64,000 nucleotides of DNA, from positions 30,167 through 94,166 of the forward strand of contig URJY01000003.1 in assembly GCA_900548275.1 (NCBI GenBank). The letters are read 5' to 3'. The position numbers and the translations under genes were made by a program. The notes below the pieces were generated by a model that made no database searches, was not told the DNA's origin, and saw nothing but the letters and a program-made list of their open reading frames with translations. Within the stretch, counting starts at the first letter, position 1; every line of letters starts with the position of its first letter. This stretch comes from an uncultured Opitutales bacterium. GTDB lineage: Bacteria; Verrucomicrobiota; Verrucomicrobiia; Opitutales; Intestinicryptomonadaceae. Shown here one piece after another: positions 11,470 through 40,120 of this stretch.

Positions 11470-11519
11470 TGGTGGGAGTAGCAGAACTCGAATCTGCGAC
11501 CCCTTGCGTGTCATACAAG
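11470..11519 (-). repeat. Partial duplicate of the tRNA-Val 3' half (anticodon stem to CCA); att-type direct repeat marking the distal island junction
   Basis: 49/50 identical to 40044..40093 (single mismatch at 11515); same orientation as the intact tRNA. Confidence 0.8.
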
Positions 11520-11667
11520 AAATGCTTGCTAATATCCAATAAGTTATGAAATCGTTGTGCCGCTTGGTTGCAATTTGACACTTTCTTGACTCGCCGAAAT
11601 CTGCAATTATTGGATCGTAAATCTTGGCTGTTTGTAATGTTGAACATCTAACGAAATCATTTGATTC

Positions 11668-12609
11668 CTACCGCAATTTGCCGATTCTTTCGCGTATCAA
11701 AGTGCAAAAACCGTCTTGTTGTTCGGTTGCCAAAAAGCTCGTGGTTATGAAATCGCAAAGTTTAGATTCTGCTTTAATCATTCGTGCGAATAGGTTGTCT
11801 ATTGCCGAGTCCGTCAACCCGAATGTTCTGAACGCCTTGACAAAATCTACTTTCGTATATTGGTATGTCCCGCCCTTGCCGTTGAGTGTTAGTGCCAATT
11901 CCTCTGCATTGTTCGGCAATGCAAGCTTTACATTTAGCATATCGTAGGCGGGCGAAAGTCTCCATTTGCCGTCGCTTTTTATGAGCGAAAAGTTTTTCAA
12001 GTGCATGTCGGAATTGCCTATTATCCACGAAAATAAAACTTGTTCGGCGAGATTCGAGAGGTCGAACCCGACGTTGTCGGAATATTCGCGGATTGTTTTT
12101 GCAATGCGTTCGTAGGACGACTTGTATTTGTCTTCGCTCAGCCGCAAAGTAAGCTGCGCCATGTCCTCCATAGGGAATTTTTCGCCGTTCGCGCCGCGGT
12201 CGATTCGCTTTGTTATATAGCAAAGCCCGCCGTCGGCAAAGCGCATCAGCGAGTGCGGCACCGTTGCAAGCCCCGCGATTTCCGCCAAGTGCATGCTCAA
12301 ATCTTCGTTTTCGGGAAGATTGCAAAAGCGCGCCGCCTGCGGCTTCAAAATGTAGTTGCCGAATACGCCGACAATCGTGAGTTTCGGGTTGGCGCGAACG
12401 GCTTTGTCGAGATACATAGAAAGCTTCGGCTGAACTCCCGCGATTGTCGTTTGCGAGCGCACAACCTGTTTTGCAAGCTCTTTCAAGTCTGCCTGCGAGT
12501 AGGGTAGTTGCGGGACAACCGATGTGCCGAAAAATTTTTTGGTGCAGACTGCGTGAAAGTCTACCTCGCCGTCTTTGAGAGGCTTGTAGCAATACAAACA
12601 TCTTTTCAT
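11668..12609 (-). CDS. hipT: HipT kinase toxin (HipA C-terminal kinase domain) of a tripartite HipBST system
   Basis: 313 aa. HipA_C-like with catalytic-loop DMHLKNFSL. Lacks the HipA N-terminal domain, which is encoded separately upstream. Start overlaps the hipS stop (ATGA). Confidence 0.8.
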   Translation of the reverse strand: MKRCLYCYKPLKDGEVDFHAVCTKKFFGTSVVPQLPYSQADLKELAKQVVRSQTTIAGVQPKLSMYLDKAVRANPKLTIVGVFGNYILKPQAARFCNLPENEDLSMHLAEIAGLATVPHSLMRFADGGLCYITKRIDRGANGEKFPMEDMAQLTLRLSEDKYKSSYERIAKTIREYSDNVGFDLSNLAEQVLFSWIIGNSDMHLKNFSLIKSDGKWRLSPAYDMLNVKLALPNNAEELALTLNGKGGTYQYTKVDFVKAFRTFGLTDSAIDNLFARMIKAESKLCDFITTSFLATEQQDGFCTLIRERIGKLR

Positions 12610-12932
12610 TTACCGTCCTCCTCCCCGATGATGCTCACCGCTCCGATGCAGTCTTTGCAACAGGCGAGCAATAACCCCATTCTGTCGCGCGGGTCGAGCT
12701 TCCAAGTTTGCGTGGCAAAATCGAGCAGCCAACCTTCGGGAATAAGCCCGTCGAAAAACGAAAAAAACGTTCTTTGTACATACGGTTCGGGGCGGAGCGG
12801 CAATGTGAGACTGACAGGCTCAGCGGTGTCGGCGCGGAGGTATGTTTCGTCGTAAGCGAACTCGTAGCCCGATTCCGTTTCGCGCAACGTTCCCGCGAAG
12901 GCGTCTTTGAAGAAAACTTTTGCGCTTCTCAT
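12606..12932 (-). CDS. hipS: HipS, HipA N-terminal-domain-like protein
   Basis: 108 aa; resembles the HipA N-terminal (Couple_hipA) domain. Overlapping starts and stops link it to hipB and hipT. Confidence 0.7.
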   Translation of the reverse strand: MRSAKVFFKDAFAGTLRETESGYEFAYDETYLRADTAEPVSLTLPLRPEPYVQRTFFSFFDGLIPEGWLLDFATQTWKLDPRDRMGLLLACCKDCIGAVSIIGEEDGK

Positions 12933-13144
12933 TGCCTATCCTCCTTATCAAGCGGAACGGGCGCAAGCTTCGCGCCGAACATAAACAAAACCTGATTGAC
13001 CATTTTTATCCGAAGGTCTTGCTTGCCCTGTTCAATGTCGCGAATGAAATGAATGCCCACGCCGCTTTTGTCGGCAAGAGACTGTTGGGTCATCTTCAAT
13101 TCTTTGCGCCGCGCTTTTACAAAATCTTTTAGTTGTTCGCTCAT
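12929..13144 (-). CDS. hipB: HipB-like XRE-family HTH antitoxin/regulator
   Basis: Start taken at MSEQLKDF (13144). TQQSLADKSGV is an XRE HTH. The upstream 12 codons of the tracked ORF are AT-rich and promoter-like (ttgtataaaatg). Confidence 0.7.
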   Translation of the reverse strand: MSEQLKDFVKARRKELKMTQQSLADKSGVGIHFIRDIEQGKQDLRIKMVNQVLFMFGAKLAPVPLDKEDRQ

Positions 13145-13258
13145 TTTATACAATAATCGTATATATTTTGCGAAAATCAAGAATAATATACAGATAATGT
13201 ATAAATTTGCCCCGCCAGCTTCCTGTTATACGAAATATGTATAATGTGCGTCTCGCAA

Positions 13259-14215
13259 TTACCTCAAATAATACCCGCCAGTCTTGGGTGCACCGCGGAA
13301 TTCGACTTGGTCAGCAAGCTTTTTCAAGTCGCGGGCAAGAGTCCGCTTGGGGATTGAAAGCGCGGCGGAAAGCTCGCCGGCATTGCAACCCTCGTGCGTT
13401 TTTATGTAGCCGAACACTTCATTTACTCTGCCACTTACACTGCCATTTGCTCTGCCAATCGGTTCACCTTGGTGGATTTTCAGCGCATTGAGCAATTCTC
13501 CGAGCATAAAATCAATAAACGCGCCGGAATCGTTGTTTGCCGTGCTCGCGTTGATGGCTTCGTAGTATTTCAGCTGGTTGTCGTGAACGAGCGTTTCGAC
13601 GGGCAGATATTGAAATACGGGATTGAGTTTCGACAAAATCAGCGATTGCCACAAGCGACCCATTCTGCCGTTTCCGTCGGCGAACGGGTGAATAAATTCA
13701 AACTCGTAGTGGAAGACGCAACTGCGAATCAACAGGTGGTCGTCGGCGTTTTTGAGCCAGTCGAAGAGGTTTGCCATCAGCTCGGGTACACGTTCGAATG
13801 GTGGCGCAATGTGAACCGCGCGGTTTTCGTCAAAAACGCCGACTCCGCTTCTCCGAAATTGTCCCGCAGTTTCGACGAGTGCCGACATCATCTGCGCGTG
13901 TGCCCTCAAAAGGTCTTCGAGCGAAAACGGGTTGAACGAGGCAAAATTGTCGTATACTGCAATCGCGTTTTTCACCTCTTGAAGTTCGCGAATCGGCGCG
14001 ACTACATTTTTGCCGTTTAAAATATCACCAACCTGCGTTTCCGAAAGGGTATTGCCCTCAATCGCGAGCGACGAATAAATGGTCTTGATTTTGTTTGCCC
14101 GCCTAAGCTTCAACGCATCGCGTTCAAAGCGAATGGCAAACCGTTCGACAAGCGCGGAAATTTCCGCAATCATCGAAATCGCCTTGCTCGAAACTATAAA
14201 CGGGGGTTTTGTCAT
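13259..14215 (-). CDS. Fic-family protein (AMPylator-type) with C-terminal wHTH
   Basis: 318 aa; canonical Fic motif HPFADGNGRMGR. Confidence 0.85.
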   Translation of the reverse strand: MTKPPFIVSSKAISMIAEISALVERFAIRFERDALKLRRANKIKTIYSSLAIEGNTLSETQVGDILNGKNVVAPIRELQEVKNAIAVYDNFASFNPFSLEDLLRAHAQMMSALVETAGQFRRSGVGVFDENRAVHIAPPFERVPELMANLFDWLKNADDHLLIRSCVFHYEFEFIHPFADGNGRMGRLWQSLILSKLNPVFQYLPVETLVHDNQLKYYEAINASTANNDSGAFIDFMLGELLNALKIHQGEPIGRANGSVSGRVNEVFGYIKTHEGCNAGELSAALSIPKRTLARDLKKLADQVEFRGAPKTGGYYLR

Positions 14216-14256: not shown

Positions 14257-17001
14257 TTATTTCGCGAATTTGGCAACCAATCCTTCGAGAGTTGCGTTGG
14301 AGAGAACCGCGGTATCGGGAATCAGCAGGTATTTCCACGGAACTCCGCCATTTTTTAAGGCGTGTTCGCTTGCATATTCGCACCAACGTATTGCTGCCTG
14401 CGCTTTTGCCTGAACCTGTGTGGAATCGACGTCTTTCCCCGCTTTTGTCTCCACTAGCAATTTGCATGTAGGCGTTTCCACAATGAAGTCGGGTTCATAC
14501 TCCCTGCCGTCGGAATAGTAGATGGAAATATCTTTTGTAGTCGGCTTGAACCAGCGCGAAACTTCGGGCGAATCCTCCAAAATTACGGCAAATCTGCGTT
14601 CCGTGTCGGAGTCGAATTTCATTTGCGGGAACAGGCACTTTTTGAAACCGTCAAAAATGATGTCGCCGATATCGCGTTTTGTGAAGACTGGGTTTCTGAA
14701 ATTTTGCCTATTGTCTCCTTTTGTGAGCGTATAGCTGTTTGAGGATACAATGTTGAACCCTCTAAAAACGTCCGCCTTATATTCAACCGCCGCCGTTTTG
14801 ACGTGCTTGAACAATTCGTCGTGAAGCGTGTTTGCAATCTCCGTGCGGTTGAAAAGAACAATCTTGCGAACTTCGTTTTCGTCCGATTCATACGAGCGCA
14901 GGAAGTCGGCATACTGTTTTGCGATTGCATTTATAACTGCATTGTTGTCGTCGTATGGTATGTCGTTTAAATCCATCAACGCACTTACGATTATCTGTTC
15001 GGGCGATTCTTCGCCATCCATTTCCTCCGCGGAAACAACAAAGCCGATATTTGTTTGGAGCTGACGCACGGTGATGTCGCGGCTTACCCGTTGGAATTTA
15101 CGCAGCCCTTCACATTCGAGATTGAACATTTCGAATGTGCGGCGGCTTTCGCCTTTTGGGGTAATGATTACGCGCGGAATGTCGATTGTCATTTCCTGTG
15201 TCATTCCGATTGCCTTACCGACATTCTCTTCGATGTGTAGTTGCCCGTTTTGTCCGCCAAAATCGAGTTCAGTCTGCGGTACTTCTCTCGAAATTTTCTC
15301 CTTAACTTTTTCGACAATCAACGCCTTTACTTCGGGCGTAGAGAGGGCTTCGACAGTCGGCTGACTTTGGAAATCCTCGCTTATTACCTCTCTTGTGATT
15401 TTTGCGATTTTCTTTTCCTCTTCCGTGTTGAAAGTATATTTCTTTGCCGCGGATTTGATTATAGAATCTTGCGAATCGCCACGTGAAACCTCCGTGTCGT
15501 CGTCGGACGGTTCGTTTACATCGCCTTCGATTATCGCGTCTATCGCGTTTTTTACCGTTATCGAAACTTTGCCTTCGGGCGGAATGTCCCTGCCGATAAC
15601 AACCGTCTTTCTTATGAGCGAATCGGGACTGTTTGCATAGTCTACAATTTCCTGAAATTTGTCGTGCGAGACAATCGTGAGCGTATCCACTTCGGGCTCG
15701 CCAGTCCGCCTGCCGTAAGGCAAACGCAATCCGCGCCCGATGGACTGCTCGACAAGTGTTTTGGAGTTTGCCGCGCGCAGCGGAACAATCGTGTATAGGT
15801 TGGTAACGTCCCAACCCTCTTTTAGCATGTTGACGTGGATTACAATTTCAATCGGATTGTTCGGATCTTCCACAGTCAGAAGTTTTGCGATGTTTTCGTC
15901 CTTTTCTTCGCCAGAAGTCGCCGAATTTATCTCGAGAATTTTCCCCGCATAGCGGCCGTCGAAAAAGTCCGAACTTTCCATATACGCGCGCAGCTGAGCC
16001 GAATGCGTGGTATCGGTTGCCACAACCAAAATGAAGGGCTTTACGCGTTTTACCCCCTTATTTTGCGCGTAGACGGTCAACGCCGCCGCAGTGGATTCGT
16101 GAATGCATACGGCATCGTGAAGCTTGATTTTTTCAAGCTCTTCGGACGAATACTGCTTCGGGTCGAAGTTTTCGCGCGTGGCGACCGCCGGTTCTTTCAC
16201 ATATCCGTCGCGGATGGCAAGTGCGAGCGGGTAATCATAAATAACATTTTTAAACGGGACTGATTTCCCCGCTTTTTCCACCTGCGGAGTTGCCGTAAGC
16301 TCCAAACCCAAGACGGGTTTCAAGTCGTTTAACGCCTCCCAGCCCGCGCTTGCCCGATAGCGGTGCGACTCGTCCATAATTACGACCAAGTCTTCCTTTT
16401 CGGCGAGATAGTTGAAATAACTGTCGCCGATTGCCTCGTTCAGGCGGCGGATGCGCGCAACCGAACGCTGCTCGTCGTCTTTTGCGAGCTTGCCGCCGTC
16501 GCGGGCGGTAATTTTTGCGATGTTGAAAATGTTTATTACGACATTCGAAATCATGTCGTCGCGCGCGCCGATTCCGCTTTCGTAGTTGTCGCCCGTTACG
16601 ATTATCGGGGGATTTCTCGCAAATTCGCCGATTCCCTTGAAGACATATTTCGGCGTGTTGGGCGTGAAGTCGGCTTGAAGCTTGTTGTAAATTGTAAGGT
16701 TGGGGGCTACCACAAAGAAATTGTTTACGCCGTGCGCCGTGTGCAAATACGCAATGAACGCTCCCATCAAACGCGTTTTGCCGACGCCCGTTGCAAGCGC
16801 AAAACAAAGCGACGGAAACTTGCGCTCGAAATCCGAAACCGTGGGGAACTCGCTTTTGATAACCTCCAACGCCTTGGCAATGTCGCAGTCTTTCGACAAA
16901 TCCGTAATCTCGCAAATTCGGTCTAGAATTGAGAGCGAAATCTTTTGCGGCTCGCGTAAGCTAAGCCTGTTCGAAATAGGATTTACATCGTATACGCTCA
17001 T
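14257..17001 (-). CDS. res: Type III restriction enzyme Res subunit
   Basis: 914 aa; ResIII helicase motifs (ATGVGKT Walker A, DESHR, LELTATP). C-terminal PD-(D/E)xK-like nuclease region EYEPDFIVETPTCKLLVETKAGKD. Confidence 0.85.
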   Translation of the reverse strand: MSVYDVNPISNRLSLREPQKISLSILDRICEITDLSKDCDIAKALEVIKSEFPTVSDFERKFPSLCFALATGVGKTRLMGAFIAYLHTAHGVNNFFVVAPNLTIYNKLQADFTPNTPKYVFKGIGEFARNPPIIVTGDNYESGIGARDDMISNVVINIFNIAKITARDGGKLAKDDEQRSVARIRRLNEAIGDSYFNYLAEKEDLVVIMDESHRYRASAGWEALNDLKPVLGLELTATPQVEKAGKSVPFKNVIYDYPLALAIRDGYVKEPAVATRENFDPKQYSSEELEKIKLHDAVCIHESTAAALTVYAQNKGVKRVKPFILVVATDTTHSAQLRAYMESSDFFDGRYAGKILEINSATSGEEKDENIAKLLTVEDPNNPIEIVIHVNMLKEGWDVTNLYTIVPLRAANSKTLVEQSIGRGLRLPYGRRTGEPEVDTLTIVSHDKFQEIVDYANSPDSLIRKTVVIGRDIPPEGKVSITVKNAIDAIIEGDVNEPSDDDTEVSRGDSQDSIIKSAAKKYTFNTEEEKKIAKITREVISEDFQSQPTVEALSTPEVKALIVEKVKEKISREVPQTELDFGGQNGQLHIEENVGKAIGMTQEMTIDIPRVIITPKGESRRTFEMFNLECEGLRKFQRVSRDITVRQLQTNIGFVVSAEEMDGEESPEQIIVSALMDLNDIPYDDNNAVINAIAKQYADFLRSYESDENEVRKIVLFNRTEIANTLHDELFKHVKTAAVEYKADVFRGFNIVSSNSYTLTKGDNRQNFRNPVFTKRDIGDIIFDGFKKCLFPQMKFDSDTERRFAVILEDSPEVSRWFKPTTKDISIYYSDGREYEPDFIVETPTCKLLVETKAGKDVDSTQVQAKAQAAIRWCEYASEHALKNGGVPWKYLLIPDTAVLSNATLEGLVAKFAK

Positions 17002-18020
17002 TGTCTTCTCTTCTTTTGGGCGATTTTCTTTTCTATGTCTTTCAGCTCTTTCATGTCCTCTTGGTCGGCGGCTAAAGCTTCCTGTGCACGTCTTTTTGCG
17101 TCAAATTCGTCGTATCTGCCGCCGACAATTTGTTCCATTTCTACACGGCTCACAGTTCCCGAACCGTTCAGTACAGGAAAATCATTCAACATTAAAAGCT
17201 TGTCAACTGCCCCCTTCCAAAAGTCCATTGTTATCGTTTGGAGCCTCTTTACGCGCAATTCCGCTGAATCCAAGAAGATTGAAACAAGGCGGTTAAGCGT
17301 GTCGATTTCGTCGGCTTTCAGGTAGTTTTTGGCTATGATGATGTCGCCTTTGCGGACAATAGAACCCTTCCACGAAGTGAGATTCATATTCGGCTTTGTC
17401 GGATCCGCCCTCGAGACTATTATTTCAGCCGCGGTCTGTTTTGTTACAGCGTAAAGCAACTTATTTTGAACTTCCGCAAAAAACATCTGCGTTGCCTTGT
17501 CTTGCGGATCATAACCATAGCTTAGAGCAAATAAGTCGCGAACCTTCTGATAAAAACGCTTTTCGGAAGCACGGATATCGCGGATTTTCTCAAGCAGTTC
17601 GTCGAAATAGTCGAACGCGCCAAACGCATTGGGATTTTTTAGCCGCTCTTCGTTGATAAGGAAGCCTTTTTCGAGATACGAAACCAAATTGCGGATAGCC
17701 CATTGTCTGAACTCGACTGCACGCGGACTCCTAACCCTAAATCCTATTGCCAAAATCATTTCGAGAGAGTAAATGGCAACGTTGTAATTCTTACCATCGG
17801 AGGCAGTTGTTAAGTAATCCTTAACAACTGAACTTTTACCCAACTCCTTGTCTTCCAGTATGTTTTTTATGTGTATGCTGATGTTGGCAACGGAGGTGCC
17901 AAAAAGTTTTGCAATGTCGGGTTGAGTAAGCCAAATCTTGTCACCAAGCTTGGTAAGCCCTATCTCCGTCTTGCCGTCTTTCGACTTGTAAATTATGATG
18001 TCGTTTTCAGCCATTGTCAA
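16998..18020 (-). CDS. RhuM-family (virulence RhuM) protein embedded in the R-M operon
   Basis: 340 aa; N-terminal KSKDGKTEIGLT...WLTQPDIAKLFG... pattern characteristic of RhuM-family proteins, which are frequently inserted in R-M loci. Confidence 0.7.
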   Translation of the reverse strand: MTMAENDIIIYKSKDGKTEIGLTKLGDKIWLTQPDIAKLFGTSVANISIHIKNILEDKELGKSSVVKDYLTTASDGKNYNVAIYSLEMILAIGFRVRSPRAVEFRQWAIRNLVSYLEKGFLINEERLKNPNAFGAFDYFDELLEKIRDIRASEKRFYQKVRDLFALSYGYDPQDKATQMFFAEVQNKLLYAVTKQTAAEIIVSRADPTKPNMNLTSWKGSIVRKGDIIIAKNYLKADEIDTLNRLVSIFLDSAELRVKRLQTITMDFWKGAVDKLLMLNDFPVLNGSGTVSRVEMEQIVGGRYDEFDAKRRAQEALAADQEDMKELKDIEKKIAQKKRRQ

Positions 18021-18566
18021 TCAGTCCTTTTGGTATCCTTCGTAATAGTATGATTGTTCTATGCCCTTGAAAATTATTTCCCTGTTGTCTACGTCGTCGG
18101 TTAGGGCGGACATAAGCAGCGTCCGTATTTCGAGGTCGTTTATAGGGCTGCGCTCCATTGCCTGTAAATATCGGTCTTTGTCAACCGTTTGCCAGTTCAC
18201 GACTTTCCCCAAACGCTTCTTCAAAATCATATCAAGCCAAATGCGCATACTTCTGCCGTTGCCCTCCATAAACGGATGCGCAACGTTCACCTCAACATAC
18301 TTGGCTATAATTTCCCCAAAGGAATTTTCGGGCATCTGCTCGATTTTCGCCAATGCTTCTTTCAGATACAAACTGTTTGCAAATCTGAATCCGCCTTTCG
18401 AAATGTTCTTTTCTCGAATCTGCCCCGCAAAGTCGTATAATCCGCCGAATAAATACTTGTGAATGTCGAGCAAGCCGCGCAACGTGCCTACTTCAACCGC
18501 GTCAATCGCGCCGCTTTCAAATAGCCTATACGCATTTTGCAAGCTCTGTTCGTCGATGCTTTTCAT
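18021..18566 (-). CDS. Small Fic/Doc-family protein
   Basis: 181 aa; Fic motif [12 protein letters not shown]. Confidence 0.8.
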
Positions 18567-20284
18567 TACTTATTCTCCCCGAATAAATCGAGTTGGTCTT
18601 TGTCGTTTTTTTGTTTCTTGAAGGATTTTTTTGCGGGCGCGGGTTGCGGCGGAGTCGGTTCCGCAAAGGGGAGGTTTTTTATCTCCAAGGAATAGTCGTC
18701 GTGGTTCCATTCGCACTTTTTGAGTATCGCCTTGGGGATCTTCTTGATTGTAAGATTTCCGTATCTTTCCGCATTGCCGTCGAACGAGCCGCAGCAAATT
18801 AAAAGCGAATTCTTTTGCCCGACGTCATCATTTAACTTTGTGAGCATTTGCGCCGTTAGATGCTGGGTTGTGATGTAAATAAAGTCGGTTTCGGTTGATT
18901 TACCCTGCTTCCAATACGTGTCGGGCGAGGGATTGAAATCAAAGCCCTCTATTTTGCACAACGCGCGCACAAGCATGTGTTCGTCGAATTGCTTGTTGAT
19001 TACGGGGTTCCCCCATTCGTCGAACTTGATAAGACTTGGTGCCAAATTGTAGTAGCGGAAGCCGCCGCCGCCCTGCCAGTTCGCCGATTTAGTGATGCCG
19101 CCTTGGTCTTCGCCGTCGATAACCTTTTTCAGACGCGGCGCACAATGAGTATCGCAGTGGTCGCCCAATTCAATACCAATCCACCGCCGCCCCATCTTGT
19201 GCGCAACCGCCGCCGTAGTCCCCGACCCCAAAAACGAATCAAGCACAAGATCTCCAGGAACAGTTACTGCCGACAATAAAGTATTAATAAGTTTTTCTGG
19301 TTTTGGATAATCAAAGGCTTTTTCTGTTCCGAATAAGTCTATAGTTTCTTTATTTGAATCCTCATATGTCGACATATTAAAATGTGCAACCGTAAGTAAA
19401 TTTTTTATTTTTTTTGATTCTCCTCCACTCTTTATATGGTTTGGTCGGAATGGTATTTTACTTATAATTAGAGGCTCTTTGGCGTCTATAATCTCATTTA
19501 GCTTTCGCTGAGAATATCTCCATTCCCCTTCAAGCCTAAAATCATTCTCGTTCTTTTTATTCTTTATTACTAATTTATCGAGAAGCTTTGTTTTTATATT
19601 TCCTTCCGACATATCCTGGGGAAGGATTATCCCATCTTCTATATTCGTAAAACTTACAGAACCTGCTGGAAATTTTAATATCTGCAAAGAATTTCCCGCA
19701 TTATTTAATGGGTATTTTTTATCTTCTGTCGTCATCCCTCCAATAAAAGGAGGCGATTTTTGCCTGATTGGAGAATATGAAAGAATATACTCTGTTATAA
19801 TACCCATATTCGCATTTAGAAACGATGGTTTTTTCTTTTTTTCCCAAACAAATTGACCGCAAAAATTTTGCCTCCCAAAAATCTCATCTAACAATACCTT
19901 TAAGTAAGCTTGTTCTGTGTCATCTATTTGAACAAATAATATTCCATCTTCAGATAATAATCTTCTCAATATTTCCAAACGTTCTCTCATTAATGAGAGC
20001 CAAATAGAGTGTTCTAATCCATCGTCGTAGTGTTCAAAAGCATTGCCAGTGTTGTAGGGAGGATCAATATAAATACACTTAACTTTGCCTGCATATTCCT
20101 GTTCGAGAGCTTTTAGTGCAAGAAGATTGTCGCCATGAATAAGCATGTTATCGAAAATATCGTCATTCGACACTCTTTTTGCGGCATGATAACTCTTTGC
20201 GGGATCCTCAATAAGAATCCGAGGCTCCAACCGCGCCCGCTTCTCCTTCCCCACCCAAACCAACTCTAACTTCTGCTTGTTCAT
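18566..20284 (-). CDS. mod: Type III R-M Mod subunit (N6-adenine DNA methyltransferase)
   Basis: 572 aa; DPPY motif ([10 protein letters not shown]); AdoMet-binding region near C-terminus ([12 protein letters not shown]). The 5' half of the gene is conspicuously AT-rich relative to the 3' half (see finding 'Island is compositionally mosaic'). Confidence 0.85.
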
Positions 20285-30053: not shown

Positions 30054-30417
30054 TTCGAAACAAACTTTGCGGTACTGACGGCTACGCCGTCTTGAATATC
30101 ACAGGGTTTTTCTCGCGGGATACGCGTTGCATTTCCCGCTCGATGGGGACGCTACGCGTCCATTAATTATCTGCTTGTTTCGGAGTGCTACACTAACCCC
30201 TCCGACTTCCGTCGGAGGGTAAAGCCCGCAGTTGTTGCCGTAATTCGGCTCGGCTAAATCAGGGTGAAATACCCACCTCCCGAAATCTTTGTACCCTTCC
30301 GTTTCCCCATCTGCACTCTGCCGATTTTACCGAAGCGATTGTTCCACTAACTACCCCCCCTGAAACTTTTTTTGGGAATTTTCGCAAAGCCGAAGCAATC
30401 TTCCTATACTGTAACCT
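30054..30417. promoter_or_regulatory. Candidate oriT / divergent promoter region between the relaxase and the next gene
   Basis: Contains a perfect inverted repeat ccctccgac-ttc-cgtcggaggg (about 30201..30224) and other imperfect inverted repeats immediately upstream of the relaxase gene. Confidence 0.35.
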
Positions 30418-32716: not shown

Positions 32717-32719
32717 GGA

Positions 32720-32869
32720 ATGAAAAAGCCAAATATGGATAACGACCAAATCGAAATGATAATTCGCGCGATTCTCTCGCGTCCCGAATTCATCAGGGCA
32801 GTTGCCGCCGAGCTGAACAATTTCAAGTCAATCGGCAAACCCGATAAAATTGACATCTACCAAGCGTAG
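32720..32869 (+). CDS. Small hypothetical protein (49 aa) immediately downstream of the integrase; excisionase/accessory candidate
   Basis: Hand-translated: MKKPNMDNDQIEMIIRAILSRPEFIRAVAAELNNFKSIGKPDKIDIYQA. Below the ORF-track size cutoff. Confidence 0.3.
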   Translation: MKKPNMDNDQIEMIIRAILSRPEFIRAVAAELNNFKSIGKPDKIDIYQA

Positions 32870-33387
32870 CGGATATTGAAATGCTCAAATCGCACGGTTC
32901 ACACATTGCGCAAGCTTTACCCCGAAATTGTCTCGGGCGGAGAACACTCGCACAAATACGACCGCTCGGCAGTGGAGCGCGTCGCCCAAATCCGCTCCGA
33001 ACGGTATTTGAGATAGCAGCCTGCTTTATAATGCTTGAGAAAACATACAATTTGGCGGCAATTTGTATTGTTTATAAAGCGTTATCGAAAAAGGTAAAAA
33101 TTTCCGTGTTTAAACGGATTTCTTTATTGCGCTGATAACTTACACCGAATCCTCCTAAGTAAATAGTAAACATGGAGGATGTGATAAGTCCTCCCCTGTT
33201 TGCCGATTGCGAGTTGTAGAATTATAATTTATCAATTTATAATTTTAGTTTTGTCTGTACCGTAAACTTCCTATACTTACAAGATTTTACCTTTTACTTT
33301 TGGGTGAGGGCGTTCGATTGGCAAAATAACGGAAAATTAAATAACCGTCTCAGCTTTAAACTTGATATTTAACAACCGCACAATACG

Positions 33388-34401
33388 ATGAAAGTAAGAT
33401 TAAATTCGGGTATTTTCAAGATGACAAGTCGCATAGATATAAAAGAAAACACGCTTCTGCATACGGATGCGGCTTTGCTCGATTTGCTTCTCTACGACAA
33501 TACAACAAAGCGAAATATCATATGGGCAACCGATAACTACGAAAAATTCGGTATACCGTATGCCTATTCAGCCCAAATATATCCCGAGCTAATCACGGAT
33601 AAAAACGGCAATATTATTCGCCCCAGGGTTGCCAAAACGCTTGAAGAACAAACCGCAAGAGTTAAGGATAAGGCAGAAGTCTTTACTCCGTCGTGGATAT
33701 GCAATGCACAAAATAATCTTGTAGACTCTGCATGGTTCGGTCGAACAAATGTTTTTAATAAGGAACGCAATCAATCGTGGGTAGTCAATTCCAAGCGAAT
33801 TGAATTCCCAACAAAAAAGACTTGGCAGGATTATGTATTGGCTAACCGCATGGAGGTATCTTGCGGCGAGGCTCCATACCTTGTCAGCCGTTACGATACA
33901 ATTACGGGGAAGCCAATCCTCCTAAAACGCCGAATCGGGCTTCTTGACCGAAAACTGCGCGTTGTTTCAGAAAATACGGAAAATGTAGAAGATTGGTATA
34001 AGTGGGCGATCTTCGCATTCAAAAGTGTCTACGGGTTTGAATGGCAGGGCGATAACCTTCTTCTGGCAAGAGAAAACCTTCTTTATTCATTTTGCGACTA
34101 CTACAAGGCGAAATTCGGAGGTTCCCCGTCAAGACAGCAAATGCTGGAAATCGCCAATATAATATCGTGGAATATTTGGCAGATGGACGGGCTAAAAGGG
34201 GTCGTCCCCAATACATGTCACGATACGATAACCGTGGAAAAGGACTTACTCGGCAATAAGAAAACAATAAAGCCGTGCGAAGGTTGTAAAAAGGGTGATA
34301 TAACCAAGCATAGTGGCAAATATTGCTATATAATGGATTGGCAGTGCAATAAGAAAATCAGGTATATATCTATACTGAAAAAAGGCAGAAATAAGACATG
34401 A
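33388..34401 (+). CDS. Hypothetical protein with Cys-rich C-terminus, translationally coupled to the large helicase-MTase-like gene
   Basis: 337 aa. Stop overlaps the next start (ATGA at 34398-34401). C-terminal CEGCKKG...CYIMDWQC resembles a zinc ribbon. EVFTPSWI resembles MTase motif X but no AdoMet motif follows. Confidence 0.55.
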   Translation: MKVRLNSGIFKMTSRIDIKENTLLHTDAALLDLLLYDNTTKRNIIWATDNYEKFGIPYAYSAQIYPELITDKNGNIIRPRVAKTLEEQTARVKDKAEVFTPSWICNAQNNLVDSAWFGRTNVFNKERNQSWVVNSKRIEFPTKKTWQDYVLANRMEVSCGEAPYLVSRYDTITGKPILLKRRIGLLDRKLRVVSENTENVEDWYKWAIFAFKSVYGFEWQGDNLLLARENLLYSFCDYYKAKFGGSPSRQQMLEIANIISWNIWQMDGLKGVVPNTCHDTITVEKDLLGNKKTIKPCEGCKKGDITKHSGKYCYIMDWQCNKKIRYISILKKGRNKT

Positions 34402-37400
34402 GCAAGTATAACTACACGAACCCGTTTTCATACAAACTGATATATATCTTCCGAATTAACGACGATCAGCATTCGGGCATTCTAAAGGTTGGCGACACGT
34501 CAATTGACTACGCCGGCTCGCCTGACGACCTCACCCCATCTTGTGAATTACTCAACAAGGCGGCAAAGGAACGCATCAATCAGTATACGAGAACCGCAGG
34601 CATAAAATACGAACTCCTGTATACCGAACTCGCTTTCTACAAAGGTAGCGACGGGAAAAATTACGCTTTTATAGACAAGAAGCTCCATAAAGTTCTTACG
34701 AATTCGGGGATACAAAAGGTTGAATTGTACGGCGCGCAAGAATGGTTTAAGACCGACTTGGAAACCGTAAAGAACGCAATTGCCGCTCTCAAAGCGGGCA
34801 GAAAGAGTTTATCCTCCACGGAAATCTCCGAAGACAAAAGTCCCATTGTGTTGCGGCCATCTCAAATCGAAGCGGTAGAGAAAACCGTCAAATATTTCAA
34901 GAAGAAGTCCAACAAACAATTCTTGTGGAATGCAAAAATGCGTTTCGGAAAGACATTGGCGGCAATGGAAGTGGCAAAACGGTTAAATTTTGCAAAAACA
35001 CTAATCCTTACGCATCGTCCCGCCGTATCCGAGGGTTGGTTTGACGATTTCAAAAAGGTCTTCTACGACGTCAAGTGGTATTACGGTTCTAATTCACACG
35101 AGGGCATAGATTCGCTTTTGAAGCGGGGAGAAAACTTCATCTATTTTAAATCCATACAAGACTTGCGCGGATCGGCGGAAGTCGGCGGAAAGTTTGCGAA
35201 AAATCAGGACATATTTAAGACGGACTGGGATTTTCTGATTATTGACGAAGCTCATGAAGGAACGAGAACAAACTTGGGCAAAGATGTCCTTGATTCCTTA
35301 AAGAACGGCGAAAATACCAAGGTTCTGTTCCTTTCGGGAACGCCGTTTAACTTGGTGTCGGACTTCAACGAAGACGAAACCTATTCCTGGACATACGTCG
35401 ATGAACAACGGGCAAAACAGGAATGGTTCGAAACCCATTTGGGAGACTCCAATCCCTACGGCGACCTGCCTTCGATGAAAATTTACACCTTTGAGCTTTC
35501 AAAGCAGTTCAAGAATTTTCAGGATTCGGACAAGGCATTTAACTTCCGCGAATTTTTCAGGGTTTGGACCGGCGACGCGCTTCGCGACGGCAAAAATGTG
35601 TCAAGCTCTGAAATCGGGCACTTCGTTCACGAAAAAGATGTCCGCCACTTTCTTGATTTAATTTCCCACAAGTCCGACGGTAGTATGTATCCGTTTGCAA
35701 CGGAAGAATTCCGCGGCTATTTTAACCATACCTTGTGGATGGTTCCGGGGGTACGCGAAGCCAAAGCTCTAAGCGCTTTGCTTAAAGAACACGAAATATT
35801 CCGCCATTTTGAAATCGCAAACGTTGCAGGCGACGGCGATGAAGAACAAAATGAAGACGACGCTTTGAAAGTCGTCCGAAATGCCATAGACAACAATCAG
35901 TATACAATTACCTTGTCTTGCGGCAAACTCACAACGGGTGTTACGGTTAAGGAATGGACGGCGGTACTTATGCTTGCAGGCGCATACTCAACTTCGGCGA
36001 TGGGATACTTGCAGACAATATTCCGCGTGCAATCTCCCGCCATAATTGACGGTAGGCAAAAGGAGGTATGCTATGTGTTCGATTTCGCGCCCGACCGCAC
36101 ATTGAAGATGATGGCGGATGCCGTCAATATGTCAACAAAAGCGGGCAAAACCGACGGCGGGCAGAAGAAGGCCATGGGGAAGCTCCTCAATTTTTGCCCC
36201 ATTATTTCCATAGACGGGACAAATATGCGCGAGTATGACGTTGACCAAATGTTGACGCAGCTCAAACGCGCCTACATAGATAAAGTCTCCCAAAACGGCT
36301 TTGACGATGCCCACATATACAACTACAACATCGGCGCGTTTACCGAAAAGGATAAAGAATTCATCAAACACTTGAGTGCCATTGTAAAGGCAAGCAATCA
36401 ATCCAAGGCTCCAAGTGATATTCCCATTAACGATCTTGGGTTTGACAATGAGGAGCACGAAAAGGACGATACCCAGCCGAAATCCGATTCGCAGACACAA
36501 AAGTCGGAGGATAATAAAAAGAGGAAAGAAGAACGCGAACGACGCCGAACCCTTATCTCAAACCTTCGCGCAATTTCAATCCGTATACCGCTTTTAGTCT
36601 ACGGCGCAGACATTCCGTTCGAACAGGATATCAACATTGATAACCTGACCGACATCGTTGACGATGTCTCTTGGGAAGAATTTATGCCCAAAGGGCTCTC
36701 AAAGGAAGACTTTAAACGCTGCAAAAAATTCTATGACGAAACCATATTTGTGGGCGCAGGTAGAGCCATTCGAAACAGAATAAAAGACGCCGAAAAGCTC
36801 CCCGTTATGGAACGCGTAAAGGAAATAGCCGAAATATTCGGAACTTTCCGCAATCCAGATAAGGAAACAGTTCTTACGCCGTGGCGCGTTGTCAATATGC
36901 ACTTGGGAAATTGCATCGGTGGATTCAACTTCTTTGACGAAGATTTCAAACGCACACTTGAAACGCCGCGGTGCATTGACCACGGGAAAGTTTCCAAAGA
37001 AACTGTGTGGAATACCGATGCAAAAATACTTGAGGTAAATTCCAAGACGGGCTTGTATCCGCTCTATATGGCATACTCCATATTCACGGCTCGCCGCCAG
37101 AAGAAACCCGAAGTGAGCGATGAGCAGCACTGGGCGGATACTTTAAAAGACAACATATTCGTGCTTTGCAAAACACCAATGGCGGTAAGCATTACCCGCC
37201 GAACATTGGCTGGTTTTAGAAATCTACAAGTAAACGCGAAATATAGAAAAGATTTGGTAAAAGACGCACAAGAAGAAAGCTCCCGCGAAAAACTCGCAAG
37301 CGAAATTCAAAGCGGTAAAAACTTTTGGAAGATAAACGAGGATAACATTATGAAATTTGACGCAATAGTAGGCAATCCGCCGTATCAGGAAGCAAAGGGC

Positions 37401-38348
37401 ACGAATATTGTCCCAATTTTCAACCACTTCATGACGTTGGCAAAAGAAATAAATCCACGTTACATTTCCATGATTATGCCGTCGCGTTGGATGAAGGGCG
37501 GTAACCGCGGTCTTGACGATTTCATGAAAGAAACTCTCGCCGACACGCGAATTGAATTACTTCACGATTACATAGATCCCAAAGAAGTTTTCCCCGGGGT
37601 CGAAATAAAAGGCGGTGTCTGTTATTTACTTTGGGGGAAATCCCATAAGGGAATGTGCAAATATTCGTTGCACGACGTGTCGAAGAAAGAACAATCGGTT
37701 GAACGCTATCTTAAAACGGAAGGTTGCGACAGCTTTGTTAGATACCCAATTTGCGTGTCTATTTTGGAGAAGGTTCGTAATTTCAACGAACAATCTTTCT
37801 CCGGATTGGTTTCTGTAAGAGAGCCCTATGGATTAAAATCAGATTTCTTTAAACATCCCCAAAAATATGGGGTTGAACACCTCTCAAAAGATCCCATAAA
37901 GGATGGAATAAAAATTTATGGATTAGAAAACCTAAAACGGGTTGAGCGGTATGTCCCCAATTCATATAAAGTTAAGCGCAGAGAGGAAACTCTCAACTCT
38001 TACAAGATATTTATCCCCAATGCGTATGGCTGCGGAGCCATTGGAGAGGAACTCGGCACGCCGATACTCGGCACGCCGATGAGTATATGTACGGAAACCT
38101 TCTACTTAATTGGTCCATTCCAAGGCGAAGATGAAAGTAAAAACGCGTTAAAATACCTAAAAACAAAATTCTTCAGACTCCTTGTCGGATTAAAGAAAAT
38201 CACCCAACACACCACGCGCGATACGTACTCCTTTGTGCCAATTCAAGACTTTTCACGTCCATGGACAGACGGAGAGCTCTATAAAAAATACGCCCTAACC
38301 GACGAAGAAATAGACTTCATCGAAACTATGATCAAGCCTATGAAATAA
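34398..38348 (+). CDS. 1316-aa multidomain protein: GIY-YIG/T5orf172-like N-terminus + ResIII-type SF2 helicase + NPPY (N6-adenine methyltransferase-like) domain + C-terminal specificity-like region; Type ISP-like single-chain R-M/defence enzyme candidate
   Basis: Helicase motifs MRFGKTLAAM (I), LIIDEAHEG (II), LFLSGTPF (III), QTIFRVQSP (VI). FDAIVGNPPYQEAKG is methyltransferase motif IV. N-terminal LIYIFRIND...GILKVGDTS resembles GIY...YIG. No canonical FxGxG AdoMet motif was seen. Confidence 0.8.
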   Translation: MSKYNYTNPFSYKLIYIFRINDDQHSGILKVGDTSIDYAGSPDDLTPSCELLNKAAKERINQYTRTAGIKYELLYTELAFYKGSDGKNYAFIDKKLHKVLTNSGIQKVELYGAQEWFKTDLETVKNAIAALKAGRKSLSSTEISEDKSPIVLRPSQIEAVEKTVKYFKKKSNKQFLWNAKMRFGKTLAAMEVAKRLNFAKTLILTHRPAVSEGWFDDFKKVFYDVKWYYGSNSHEGIDSLLKRGENFIYFKSIQDLRGSAEVGGKFAKNQDIFKTDWDFLIIDEAHEGTRTNLGKDVLDSLKNGENTKVLFLSGTPFNLVSDFNEDETYSWTYVDEQRAKQEWFETHLGDSNPYGDLPSMKIYTFELSKQFKNFQDSDKAFNFREFFRVWTGDALRDGKNVSSSEIGHFVHEKDVRHFLDLISHKSDGSMYPFATEEFRGYFNHTLWMVPGVREAKALSALLKEHEIFRHFEIANVAGDGDEEQNEDDALKVVRNAIDNNQYTITLSCGKLTTGVTVKEWTAVLMLAGAYSTSAMGYLQTIFRVQSPAIIDGRQKEVCYVFDFAPDRTLKMMADAVNMSTKAGKTDGGQKKAMGKLLNFCPIISIDGTNMREYDVDQMLTQLKRAYIDKVSQNGFDDAHIYNYNIGAFTEKDKEFIKHLSAIVKASNQSKAPSDIPINDLGFDNEEHEKDDTQPKSDSQTQKSEDNKKRKEERERRRTLISNLRAISIRIPLLVYGADIPFEQDINIDNLTDIVDDVSWEEFMPKGLSKEDFKRCKKFYDETIFVGAGRAIRNRIKDAEKLPVMERVKEIAEIFGTFRNPDKETVLTPWRVVNMHLGNCIGGFNFFDEDFKRTLETPRCIDHGKVSKETVWNTDAKILEVNSKTGLYPLYMAYSIFTARRQKKPEVSDEQHWADTLKDNIFVLCKTPMAVSITRRTLAGFRNLQVNAKYRKDLVKDAQEESSREKLASEIQSGKNFWKINEDNIMKFDAIVGNPPYQEAKGTNIVPIFNHFMTLAKEINPRYISMIMPSRWMKGGNRGLDDFMKETLADTRIELLHDYIDPKEVFPGVEIKGGVCYLLWGKSHKGMCKYSLHDVSKKEQSVERYLKTEGCDSFVRYPICVSILEKVRNFNEQSFSGLVSVREPYGLKSDFFKHPQKYGVEHLSKDPIKDGIKIYGLENLKRVERYVPNSYKVKRREETLNSYKIFIPNAYGCGAIGEELGTPILGTPMSICTETFYLIGPFQGEDESKNALKYLKTKFFRLLVGLKKITQHTTRDTYSFVPIQDFSRPWTDGELYKKYALTDEEIDFIETMIKPMK

Positions 38349-38353
38349 CTATT

Positions 38354-39490
38354 ATGGCAGATCAAGAAGCGATATATGAAATAATAGCCGATCACATTCT
38401 TAATGAGTCGGAAGATGAGCATTTGGACTTCAAATTAAAATGGCATTCCGATTTTCCGCCACTATTAAAAGACATAATAGCAATGGCAAATTCGTCGGAT
38501 GATAAAAATTCGTATATTGTATTTGGTGTTTCTGACGATTTTAATATAGTCGGACTAACAGCCGAAGACCAGAGATACAAGAAAGCTGATATCGCCGTGG
38601 CGATTCGCGATAGTCATTTTGCGGGGAATGGCGTTCCTGAAATCGATTTGCATTCTGTTTACATTGACGGGAAACAACTTGATGTATTGGAAATAAAAAA
38701 GAGCAATAACGTCCCATACTACATTGCAACGCCGAAAAAAACAATATCGCCGTTTGTCATTTATACACGGGCAAATGACACAAACCGAGAAGCTACTTTT
38801 GAGGAGTCTGAACGACTCTGGAAAAAGAGATTTAACCTCTTGTTGCCCGAAAAAGAACTGTTTAATAGGCGCATTACTGAACCTGATAATTGGGAAAAAT
38901 ATAAAGACGAATATTTCTATACCTATGACGCATCTTATAGGTTGAAAATAGGTAATGAAACAGAAGAAGGAACTGCTCCATTTTACGCATATATAATAGA
39001 TGATTGGGGTCGCTTTTCATCAAACAACGCTGTGCTTAGTCATAACGGGAATGAAATAGCTTCCTTTCAAATAGCCTATCTTGACGGGTTCAGATTGGAG
39101 CTCGTCGTTCCCGAACATTTCTCTATAAAAATTGAAGATAACGGTAAACCAATTTACATCATCTACCGTGGATATATAAGGGATAGCCTGCGGATGAACT
39201 TGGCAAATTTTCTTTATTTAAAAGGTCTTGTCGAAAGTGATATAGAATACAGAGTGCACTTCGAAAGACTAAGAGATTCGTTTGTTATTCACGAATCAAT
39301 GGAAGAGAAAGAGATTTTTGAATCATATATAAGAACAAATTATGCTAAAATAAAACAAGAATTGTCGAAATATAATCCAATCATTTATTCGGAAATTCCC
39401 GAGGAAAGCAAAAAAAATATAAAATGGGGAATGTTCCTGCATGAATTGCATTCTAAAAAAGATGTTTGGTATCCAGAACCACCTAAATAA
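38354..39490 (+). CDS. Schlafen/AlbA_2-domain protein (divergent-AAA DNA-binding-like)
   Basis: 378 aa; N-terminus EDEHLDFKLKWHSDF...LLKDIIAMANSSDDKNSYIVFGVSD matches the AlbA_2 pattern. Starts 6 nt after the stop of the large fusion gene. Confidence 0.55.
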   Translation: MADQEAIYEIIADHILNESEDEHLDFKLKWHSDFPPLLKDIIAMANSSDDKNSYIVFGVSDDFNIVGLTAEDQRYKKADIAVAIRDSHFAGNGVPEIDLHSVYIDGKQLDVLEIKKSNNVPYYIATPKKTISPFVIYTRANDTNREATFEESERLWKKRFNLLLPEKELFNRRITEPDNWEKYKDEYFYTYDASYRLKIGNETEEGTAPFYAYIIDDWGRFSSNNAVLSHNGNEIASFQIAYLDGFRLELVVPEHFSIKIEDNGKPIYIIYRGYIRDSLRMNLANFLYLKGLVESDIEYRVHFERLRDSFVIHESMEEKEIFESYIRTNYAKIKQELSKYNPIIYSEIPEESKKNIKWGMFLHELHSKKDVWYPEPPK

Positions 39491-39902
39491 AATCTATATT
39501 TTAGAACTCTTGTAAAAATAGAGCTATATCGTTGTGAAGATTGCATCTGCGCTGATTGAAATTTTTGAATCGGCAAATTAATAGATTCGTCTTTGGGGTT
39601 ATTGCGGTCTTTCCGCCGCCATGGATTGGGCGAAGTAGGCTCGGTTTGGCGCGAATTTTGCCGAAAATTGCCGTTTCCTCTTCTTGTGTTGGAACTTCCT
39701 TGTCATCAGAGAAATAAGCTTGGTTGCCGTTTGGTTGCACTTTTGGCGAAAATCGGGCTTTTCGGTGGCGCATTTATCAATAACTTACGTCGCCGAAATC
39801 GCCCGCGAAGCTTGGTAAATACTGGGATTGTGTCTCTAAAAGCTGAAAAAGTGCATTTTTCGGCAACCAAGTCGGCGAGCTAATGTGAACTTACGAAAAA
39901 CA

Positions 39903-39934
39903 AAAAGCCGTAAGTTGTTGAACTTACGGCTTTT
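39903..39934. terminator. Bidirectional terminator hairpin (aaaagccgtaagtt-gttg-aacttacggctttt)
   Basis: 14-bp perfect stem flanked by A-run and T-run. Confidence 0.7.
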
Positions 39935-39935
39935 C

Positions 39936-40040
39936 AAATGGTGGGAGTGTGGCGAATTGGCTTTTCTTCGGCTTCGCCTCGAAAAGTCTGTTCTGACTCC
40001 CACAAAAAAACTTCCAAGCCAAAGACTTGGAAGTTTTTCT
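39936..40040 (-). repeat. Third copy (U3) of the 105-nt terminator + CCA-ending minihelix unit, directly downstream of the tRNA-Val 3' end
   Basis: About 95% identical to 11259..11466 units. Confidence 0.7.
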
Positions 40041-40043
40041 AAA

Positions 40044-40120
40044 TGGTGGGAGTAGCAGAACTCGAATCTGCGACCCCTTGCGTGTCATGCAAGTGCTCTA
40101 ACCAACTGAGCTATACCCCC
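40044..40120 (-). tRNA. tRNA-Val (anticodon GAC), CCA encoded
   Basis: Hand-folded cloverleaf: acceptor GGGGGTA/TACTCCC, D-arm GCTC/GAGC, anticodon stem CTTGC/GCAAG with loop ATGACAC, T-arm GCAGA-TTCGAGT-TCTGC, discriminator A, CCA. Confidence 0.9.

Follow-up and report, generated by a model that had tools for sequence, protein, structure and literature searches.

Introduction

Integrative mobilizable elements (IMEs) are on average 27 kb long, and 31% of them carry defence systems (PMC10201445, Botelho 2023). Most IMEs that possess a single tyrosine recombinase integrate at specific sites, including the 3' ends of tRNA genes (PMC5704250), and the relaxase-encoding type of IME has been delimited by the definition of 'iMOB' (PMC11389934, Ares-Arroyo et al. 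2024). The strategy in which an IME brings its own relaxase and coupling protein and recruits the mating pore of a helper is described in the Figure 3 legend of a review that lists NBU1 and NBU2 as IMEs with a MobP relaxase and states that no canonical IME with a MobF or MobH relaxase was then known (PMC5704250, Guedon et al. 2017). In the current study, we analysed a stretch of 64,000 nucleotides from an uncultured Opitutales bacterium of the Verrucomicrobiota (contig URJY01000003.1, positions 30,167 to 94,166; hereafter, the window), in which the segment 11520..40093 is, with high probability, an integrative mobilizable element residing in the gene for tRNA-Val(GAC).

The 3' ends of tRNA genes are also the integration sites of the NBU elements, which are far smaller than the element described here and bring few cargo genes. 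Hotspots for defence genes are also carried by P4-like satellites and by SXT. Repeats linked to a tRNA gene are known from the tyrT locus of E. coli, where 178-bp units carry the tRNA 3' end and with which the rtT RNA is associated.

Results

The region of interest is bracketed by an intact tRNA-Val(GAC) gene and a partial copy of its 3' half in the same orientation (Table 1). An earlier reading of the letters alone (hereafter, the sequence-only reading) had named both and reported 49 matches in 50 nt, which was borne out by ARAGORN, Rfam and alignment. Its 50-nt core stands, but its extent of the repeat does not: BLAST of the junctions against the window gave a direct repeat of 163 nt at 94.5% identity with one gap (E = 1e-66). 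The repeat is 163 rather than 50 nt long because one tRNA-linked unit of about 103 nt adjoins the 50-nt tRNA core, and beyond the tRNA 3' end it spans two hairpins, a terminator and one of 65 nt with a CCA end; 113 of the 163 nt are array sequence. As to whether the 50-nt repeat might be dispersed, only the two copies were found in the window by BLAST, with no third copy or remnant of the tRNA core or of the arm sequence, and their start-to-start distance is 28,574 nt. Direct att repeats thus flank the element in the chromosome; the target gene is completed by one of them, and the tRNA has remained intact.

The shared tRNA block begins at tRNA position 28, which is the 5' strand of the anticodon stem. 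Its sole mismatch (11515 A against 40089 G) falls at tRNA position 32, the final stem pair ahead of the anticodon loop. The element-derived 11515 A variant was present in all element-bearing contigs (L002, L006) and missing at the empty site described below.

This empty site lies on a conspecific scaffold of 146 kb (L001), which is 98.5–98.6% identical to both flanks and lacks the 28.6 kb. Along it, the invertase gene, the unit array, tRNA-Val, ThiS and the gene for a metallo-beta-lactamase (MBL)-fold protein follow one another with nothing between, and the tRNA core occurs once. The scaffold provides the empty attB that the sequence-only reading had proposed to look for in related genomes, though a 100-N gap lies at the site. 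The tRNA of L001 is followed by at least two array units, whereas in every element-bearing contig at most one unit separates it from the element hairpin.

The junctions on either side were consistent across strains. Contigs covering the HipT end (L002, L006, L034 and L036) pass in every case from that end through the core into the array and the invertase gene, and those covering the opposite end (L023, L025 and L037) all join tRNA-Val, with a conserved 330-nt end abutting the tRNA. On L011, the element end lies directly against the tRNA with no unit in between; since tRNA-Val adjoins the MBL gene only within the closest species, L011 is the sole informative locus for synteny in other species. 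Divergence along L006 is discordant, with 97.7% identity in the flank and 92% in the element arm. A scaffold of 28,648 nt (scaffold_293) was considered as a circular form and rejected: its left end enters a chromosomal-type unit, and it therefore shows attR.

A metagenome scan queried with the integrase returned 15 loci. In L049, L050 and L053, the backbone is 89–93% identical in nucleotides, the integrase is 96% identical in amino acids, and the element ends at a tRNA-Val(GAC) gene with the same 330-nt terminal segment and unit. Past the tRNA, these contigs encode a DHH/DHHA2 pyrophosphatase, QueH, a TPR protein and ExbB at a GC content of 0.58–0.62, and these flanks had no detectable similarity to the window or to other Opitutales loci, tblastx of the L053 flank against the other loci revealing no synteny. 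The context is either that of another species or that of another tRNA-Val locus. Since the flanks at tRNA-Val(GAC) in L049 and L053 are unrelated to those of the window, these data indicate site-specific insertion in a different background. Both presence/absence polymorphism (L001, with the caveat of its gap) and occurrence in different genomic backgrounds (L049, L053) were observed for the element.

The cargo is mosaic between strains: AAA_21/RloB stands in place of the FRG region in L032 and L033, and L052 lacks about 10.8 kb. L037 has only the terminal 330 nt in common with the element. On this contig (3638-5310), tRNA-Val, the unit, the hairpin and the 330-nt end are followed by S8 peptidase and RND efflux genes replacing the element interior, an arrangement to be read either as the remnant of a deletion or as a different element that has this arm in common. 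On L054 (3787-4104), genes for the tRNAs Ala-GGC, Gln-TTG and Leu-CAG follow a truncated methyltransferase gene about 1.8 kb past the integrase gene; they could be cargo tRNAs or mark a different insertion context.

Despite differing interiors, the tRNA-side end of the element (39610..39936) is kept at 88–99% identity in L037, L049, L050 and L053. Adjoining the tRNA-proximal unit on its element side, positions 39901-39936 form a terminator-like hairpin that differs from the unit terminator. At the opposite end (11520..11667), the first 70 nt or so are kept in the divergent variant L006. For the motif TTGGTTGC, 2.7 occurrences are expected in the window and 9 were counted; four of these (11564, 39720, 39731 and, on the minus strand, 39863) lie inside about 600 nt of element arms and are kept in relatives, and their position and repetition make them candidate arm-type integrase sites. 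In relatives (L053 11533-12252), the interval from the integrase module to the att end contains degenerate hipB- and hipA-like fragments, and the conserved terminal segment of the window opens with the last codons (…AAMDWAK*) of a former hipA-like gene.

The genes for transfer named in the sequence-only reading, a MobF-type relaxase and a TraD/VirD4-like ATPase, were both recovered by family searches. In addition to exceeding the family cutoff (Table 1), the relaxase aligned with the PDB entries of TraI and TrwC at about 1e-17, with its 'DPQLHSH' placed on 'EPQLHTH' of TraI, the HxH motif. Identity to plasmid MobF relaxases is at most 32% and confined to the N-terminal 300 aa or so, and residues of about 300-746 matched no helicase family and no plasmid relaxase in searches of Pfam, NCBIfam and plasmid relaxases. 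The protein therefore combines the MobF family match and motif with the lack of a C-terminal helicase domain such as that of TrwC/TraI.

The ATPase is a P-loop NTPase with signatures of type IV coupling proteins (T4CP), as expected of a VirD4/TraD-like protein. Its matches to TrwB_AAD_bind (20.8 bits, cutoff 20.5) and DUF87 (26 bits, cutoff 23.2) are both barely above the threshold, and the NCBIfam match to SXT_TraD (1e-07) is partial and below its cutoff. Homologues at 29–46% identity carry the T4CP domains PF10412, PF02534 and PF12696, and these support the assignment; a sequence search against the PDB returned noise and a weak DotL match only. The Walker A motif begins as early as residue 31, which leaves too little sequence for a membrane anchor; by inspection, residues 1-30 are hydrophilic and form no N-terminal transmembrane anchor.

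No mating-pore genes (VirB4, TraC or others of the mating-pair formation, MPF, set) were found in any scanned open reading frame (ORF) of 11520-40043, where the five family-less ORFs are all 367 aa or shorter. The element thus lacks an MPF apparatus or type IV secretion system (T4SS), and the complete MPF set of an integrative and conjugative element (ICE) is absent. The 367-aa protein had no Pfam, PHROG or NCBIfam match. Between its gene and the relaxase gene, the divergent intergenic region carries inverted repeats at 30115-30139 and 30198-30219; on the strength of its position and these repeats, 30054-30417 is a candidate oriT.

A tyrosine integrase had been proposed at 31553..32716, and this assignment is supported by the PHROG match and the catalytic residues, with the caveat that no Pfam match was obtained at E <= 0.01, including to PF00589. 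NCBIfam gave weak Xer matches, and distant homologues do carry PF00589. In an alignment with 14 homologues, R240, K273, R328 and Y361 were invariant and H350 was mostly conserved; the residue three before R328 is not His. A sequence search against the PDB found no matches. The clade is small (29 database clusters). Its members include integrases at 37–46% identity located 0.65-0.9 kb from tRNA-Asp genes (L047, L048), and a relative at 31% identity closes a prophage-like contig ending in a tRNA 3' fragment.

The sequence-only reading had placed the integrase gene about 8 kb from either end and called this atypical. The internal position holds, but the distances are 7.3 kb to the tRNA-side end and 20 kb to the other. 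On L053, 1.5 kb separate the integrase stop codon from the tRNA, and this interval holds, in order, a 98-aa ORF, hipB-/hipA-like remnants and the conserved terminal segment. The window matches this layout up to 33085 and again from 39610, and the intervening 6.5 kb are extra, being missing in L049, L050 and L053. The integrase therefore looks internal because a hotspot that separates its module from the att end is filled by 6.5 kb of cargo; relatives without this block have the module 1.5 kb from the same end, and the term atypical no longer applies.

The small ORF after the integrase gene carries a nonsense codon in the window (CAG to TAG at 32867-32869, Q50*), where relatives have CAG or CAA. 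It is intact in 5 aligned relatives, and Q50* removes the segment that is conserved. The very allele of the window was observed in the samples ERZ28623484, ERZ654433, ERZ653842 and SRR6028370. In L047, the ORF after the related integrase gene is 44% identical to this small ORF and has a weak PHROG excisionase match (E = 0.016). The small ORF itself belongs to no Pfam, PHROG or NCBIfam family and has no named homologues. Its AlphaFold model is of low confidence (pLDDT 62), and Foldseek returned nothing below E = 1, with winged-helix regulators as the top matches. From its position and its conservation with L047, we infer that it is a putative directionality factor, in which case the window copy may be impaired in excision. 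Other metagenome copies have frameshifts in the small ORF (P0138, P0139) or deletions in the integrase gene (L060, L062, L063), and decay therefore does occur in this element family. The element has its own recombinase for integration and excision, with a candidate directionality factor that is truncated.

The list of defence and toxin-antitoxin cargo in the sequence-only reading (HipBST, two Fic proteins, Type III restriction-modification (R-M), an SNF2/FRG module, a helicase-methyltransferase fusion and AlbA_2) agreed with Pfam and PADLOC (Table 1). HipBST has the expected composition, with an adjacent helix-turn-helix (HTH) HipB, a HipS with only the HipA N-terminal part and a HipT with only the HipA C-terminal part, encoded by overlapping ORFs. 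The protein at 34398-38348 is a 1316-aa fusion of nuclease, helicase and Eco57I-type methyltransferase and is Type IIG-like. The FRG/SNF2 module (20309..24886) has the lowest GC content of the element (0.33). DISARM was considered for it and rejected: only a DrmD-like helicase is present, next to the FRG protein and an unknown protein, and the other Drm genes are absent. Three sites are variable, namely that between the integrase module and the att end, that between the 143-aa ORF and the 3' end of the relaxase gene, and the whole left arm; the second of these holds an insert of about 2.9 kb with a second tyrosine recombinase in L049 and L058.

The tRNA-linked array was the most unusual side observation, in that it consists of minihelices of which one unit travels with the element. 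On the tRNA strand, tRNA-Val is followed by tandem units of about 103 nt, each composed of a terminator with an A-run, hairpin and T-run (CTTCCAAG..CTTGGAAG), which is of a bidirectional type, and of the 65-nt hairpin, which has an 8-bp acceptor-like outer stem (GTGGGAGT/ACTCCCAC) and a CCA end like that of a tRNA 3' end. The unit on the element side (39937..40043) is kept in L037, L049, L050 and L053 and missing in L011. The hairpins fold much better than shuffled controls (z-scores of -4.7 to -5.7). Rfam gave only spurious sub-threshold hairpin-type matches for the units, and no convincing compensatory changes or covariation were found among 11 distinct unit variants. Copy number differs by strain, being 1, 2 or at least 6, the last at the empty site (L001 11798-12410). 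A distinction of "gtgg" from "ttag" units as a strict marker of element and chromosome was rejected, since L004 has a gtgg-type unit within a chromosomal array.

The lower, mosaic GC content claimed for the bracketed region was reproduced: it is 0.450 for 11520-40043 against 0.553 in each flank, and modules inside the element range over 0.33-0.49. To the left of the claimed island, 10150-11469 is also low in GC (0.406) and contains a serine invertase gene kept in all strains sampled. This 201-aa serine recombinase (10577-11182, plus strand) passes the NCBIfam model 'master DNA invertase Mpi family' with 295 bits against a cutoff of 272, and such an Mpi-type invertase in a gut bacterium of the Verrucomicrobiota suggests phase-variable loci elsewhere in the genome. 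By their closest matches, the flanking genes belong to an uncultured human-gut lineage of the Verrucomicrobiota. Akkermansia, considered as host on account of GC content and glycoside hydrolases, was rejected, the nearest genomes being metagenome-assembled ones of Opitutales- or Puniceicoccaceae-like type. In the nearest species representative, the MBL-fold protein is 96% identical and the DNA about 90%. Families of intergenic repeats of 40-110 nt (D2-D7) were observed at 1443-1668 and 43465-44061, near tRNA-Leu(TAG) and in the left flank, and their arrangement differs between L001 and the window. A 6S (SsrS) RNA gene lies at 58851-59040 on the minus strand (Rfam, 72.6 bits).

Table 1. Coordinates in the window of the element, its att sites and its genes, with strand and supporting evidence.
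Feature	Position	Strand	Evidence or remark
Intact tRNA-Val(GAC)	40044..40120	-	ARAGORN; Rfam tRNA 67.5 bits
attL core, the tRNA 3' 50 nt (tRNA positions 28-77)	40044-40093		tRNA-Val(GAC)
attR core, partial copy of the tRNA-Val 3' half	11470..11519	-	49/50 against 40044..40093
Full direct repeat, left copy (one tRNA-linked unit and tRNA core)	11358..11519		BLAST
Full direct repeat, right copy	39931..40093		BLAST
Conserved element end, candidate attP arm	39610..39936		Tail of former hipA-like ORF, TTGGTTGC repeats, terminator-like hairpin
Opposite element end, candidate attP arm	11520..11667		TTGGTTGC at 11564
Two native units of about 103 nt, chromosomal, downstream of attR	11256..11469	-	Each ending ...ACTCCCACCA
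One unit on the element side of attL	39937..40043	-	Terminator directly after the reconstituted tRNA
Tyrosine integrase, divergent tRNA-targeting clade	31553..32716	+	PHROG_1 8.2e-21
Small ORF after the integrase gene, candidate excision/directionality factor	32720..33016	+	98 aa in relatives
MobF-family relaxase	27813..30053	-	Pfam TrwC 2.1e-46; NCBIfam NF041492 144.9 bits, cutoff 100
T4CP-like P-loop ATPase	25646..27115	+	Pfam, NCBIfam; Walker A GSTGSGKT, residues 31-38
176-aa backbone protein, function not assigned	25087-25617	+	
143-aa backbone protein, function not assigned	27294-27725	+	
367-aa backbone protein, directly upstream of the integrase gene	30418..31521	+	Kept with the integrase in relatives
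Divergent intergenic region between relaxase and 367-aa genes (364 nt), candidate oriT	30054..30417		
HipBST: HipT kinase 11668-12609, HipS 12606-12932, HipB (HTH) 12929-13180	11668..13180	-	Pfam HipA_C 5.6e-46, Couple_hipA 1.1e-25, HTH_3 3.5e-07; 313, 108 and 83 aa
SoFic-like Fic protein with C-terminal HTH	13259..14215	-	Pfam Fic 2.4e-22; PADLOC SoFic 1.6e-39
Type III R-M operon: Mod 18566-20284, small Fic 18021-18566, RhuM 16998-18020, Res 14257-17001	14257..20284	-	PADLOC MTase_III 7e-179, REase_III 8.8e-202; small Fic PDC-S04 1.7e-92; Pfam RhuM 2.4e-101
FRG protein 20309-21157, 285-aa unknown 21147-22004, DrmD-like SNF2 helicase 21989-24886	20309..24886	-	PADLOC PDC-S15 3.1e-41, DrmD 1.4e-214; Pfam FRG, SNF2-rel_dom
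Inserted defence block: Type II-like methyltransferase 33388-34401, fusion 34398-38348, AlbA_2 38354-39490	33388..39490	+	PADLOC MTase_II 1.8e-122, REase_MTase_IIG 2.6e-51, AlbA_2 PDC-S50 2.2e-78; Pfam

Discussion

The sequence-only reading took the region for an integrative mobilizable element rather than a passive island, and this is supported by the mobility genes, the absence of pore genes, the empty site on L001 and the second context on L049/L053. In the mechanism that we propose, the tyrosine integrase would recombine attP with the tRNA gene, the crossover probably lying in or 3' of the anticodon loop, since the anticodon stem is where the identity block starts and the sole mismatch, on the element-derived side, immediately precedes the loop. 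The anticodon-loop sublocation is reportedly a classic one for tRNA-targeting integrases, as Williams is said to have set out in 2002. The TTGGTTGC repeats in both arms may act as arm-type binding sites for the integrase. The tRNA gene is reconstituted, with its terminator supplied by the element.

After excision, the MobF relaxase would nick oriT, probably in 30054-30417, and the soluble VirD4/TraD-like ATPase of the element would bring the relaxosome to a mating pore provided by a conjugative element in the same cell; the pore of a helper would be needed because the element has no pore genes. Possession of its own relaxase and coupling-type ATPase might make the element independent of the relaxosome of the helper. 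The defence and addiction payload would sit in exchangeable hotspots, of which the one between the integrase module and the att end would have taken up 6.5 kb.

Several observations weigh against this account. In L001, the sole contig with an empty site, the tandem array is interrupted by the 100-N gap; neither the fetched contigs nor the viral contigs scanned for a junction specific to attR/attP yielded an attP junction or a circular form; and the 64-kb window shows no helper T4SS. The relaxase is without the helicase domain typical of TrwC/TraI, and the T4CP-like protein is without a membrane anchor. The integrase gene reads towards the tRNA, opposite to its tRNA-Asp relatives. The candidate directionality factor has no family and a stop codon in the window copy, and the arm sites and oriT were located by position and repeats only.

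Among the alternatives, the one that survives best shares the origin proposed here and holds that the window copy is now an immobilised, decaying and vertically inherited domesticated defence island that no longer excises. We regard this as a doubtful but real possibility. It agrees with the Q50* codon, which interrupts the conserved ORF in this lineage only, intact versions of the small ORF dominating the databases (P0135, 143 members), and with the identical copies found in five samples, always at the same site. The decay of other metagenome copies by frameshifts or integrase deletions (L060, L062, L063, P0137-P0139) and the failure to find an attP junction in fetched and viral contigs point in the same direction. 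Nevertheless, the integrase, relaxase and T4CP-like genes are of full length and the catalytic residues of the integrase are intact, whereas the role of the small ORF as a directionality factor is only putative. Further, such a factor is not treated as a universal requirement for IME excision (PMC5704250), and a related element could supply it in trans.

That the element is instead a degenerate ICE that lost its type IV secretion genes, and not a dedicated mobilizable element, appears improbable. Typical carriers of MobF relaxases and VirD4-type coupling proteins are self-transmissible elements, conjugative plasmids made up 4,897 of the best 5,000 plasmid matches listed, and the relative L056 has a canonical VirD4 of 567 aa nearby. 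However, at least 8 independent contigs share, at 89–98% identity, a compact backbone that comprises the 176-aa protein, the T4CP-like protein, the 143-aa protein, the relaxase, the 367-aa protein, the integrase and the small ORF and is devoid of pore genes, which suggests a stable IME architecture. In addition, Pfam revealed no remnant of VirB4/TraC in the ORFs of the element.

Very improbable, too, is a composite structure, in which at least two elements would have entered this tRNA in tandem and the integrase would stem from an inner one. The mosaic of GC content (0.33-0.49), the internal integrase and the second tyrosine recombinase of some relatives (L049, L056 and L058) would accord with it, but BLAST in the window detected neither a copy nor a remnant of the tRNA core or arms in the interior, and the relatives that simply lack the 6.5-kb block, with the integrase module 1.5 kb from the same end, fit the insertion of cargo and not tandem accretion. 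Least credible of all is the notion that the repeat is merely native tRNA-linked array and that the foreign DNA arrived by homologous recombination or another route, and not by the integrase at the tRNA: although 113 of the 163 repeat nt are array sequence and unit types are swapped between element and chromosome (L004), a second copy of the 50-nt core is confined to sites with the element, L001 having a single one, the anticodon stem is the exact starting point of the identity block, the element end of L011 meets the tRNA without any unit, and the same junction recurs in a different genomic context (L053).

Taking the segment as an integrative mobilizable element, a bolder proposal, which we consider unlikely, is that its backbone of integrase, small ORF, MobF relaxase and soluble T4CP represents an undescribed and abundant IME family whose attP carries a minihelix unit, the array being a functional locus of processed small RNAs. 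If this were true, the family would move between species of human-gut Opitutales-like Verrucomicrobiota at tRNA-Val(GAC) as their main shuttle of defence genes. The carriage of a unit by attP would then be deliberate, and the copy number of the minihelix array would be shaped by element traffic, the units not being inert repeats.

Comparison with known systems

IMEs at tRNA genes and their frequent load of defence genes are already well known, and the present data leave current concepts of mobile elements unchanged. The closest described type is that of the iMOB IMEs, with which the element shares chromosomal integration between direct att repeats, a single tyrosine integrase acting at the 3' part of a tRNA gene, a size of about 27 kb, and a relaxase and coupling-type ATPase of its own without mating-pore genes. 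It differs from them in its MobF relaxase without a helicase domain, its anchor-less ATPase and its host in the Verrucomicrobiota. NBU1 and NBU2 of Bacteroides are likewise mobilizable elements of the gut that integrate site-specifically, restore the tRNA and need a helper ICE, but their relaxase is of the MobP type, their integrase belongs to a different family, and they encode no coupling protein.

As in the defence hotspots of ICEs and IMEs (PMC10201445), a conserved mobility backbone is combined with exchangeable defence cargo at fixed positions, and R-M is among the commonest systems; the positions differ, being here the three variable sites named above. The combinations of cargo in this element have not been described before. 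It offers a concrete case in which a cargo hotspot displaced the integrase from its att site.

For the 103-nt units, the closest analogue is found in the tyrT units of E. coli, which are also in tandem, directly downstream of a tRNA gene, each ending with the 3'-terminal nucleotides of the tRNA. The present units differ in sequence and length, in the combination of a terminator with a hairpin ending in CCA, and in that one unit resides on a mobile element.

What is new here is the host lineage, the divergent integrase clade, the helicase-less MobF relaxase in an IME and the anchor-less coupling ATPase. The mobile elements of this lineage appear little studied, although no literature search was aimed at them, and the locus is a clean and well-bounded example of an uncultured gut lineage of the Verrucomicrobiota acquiring and reshuffling anti-phage and addiction modules. 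Compared with the review of 2017, in which none was listed, it adds to the catalogue an IME that unites a MobF relaxase with a coupling ATPase devoid of a membrane anchor.

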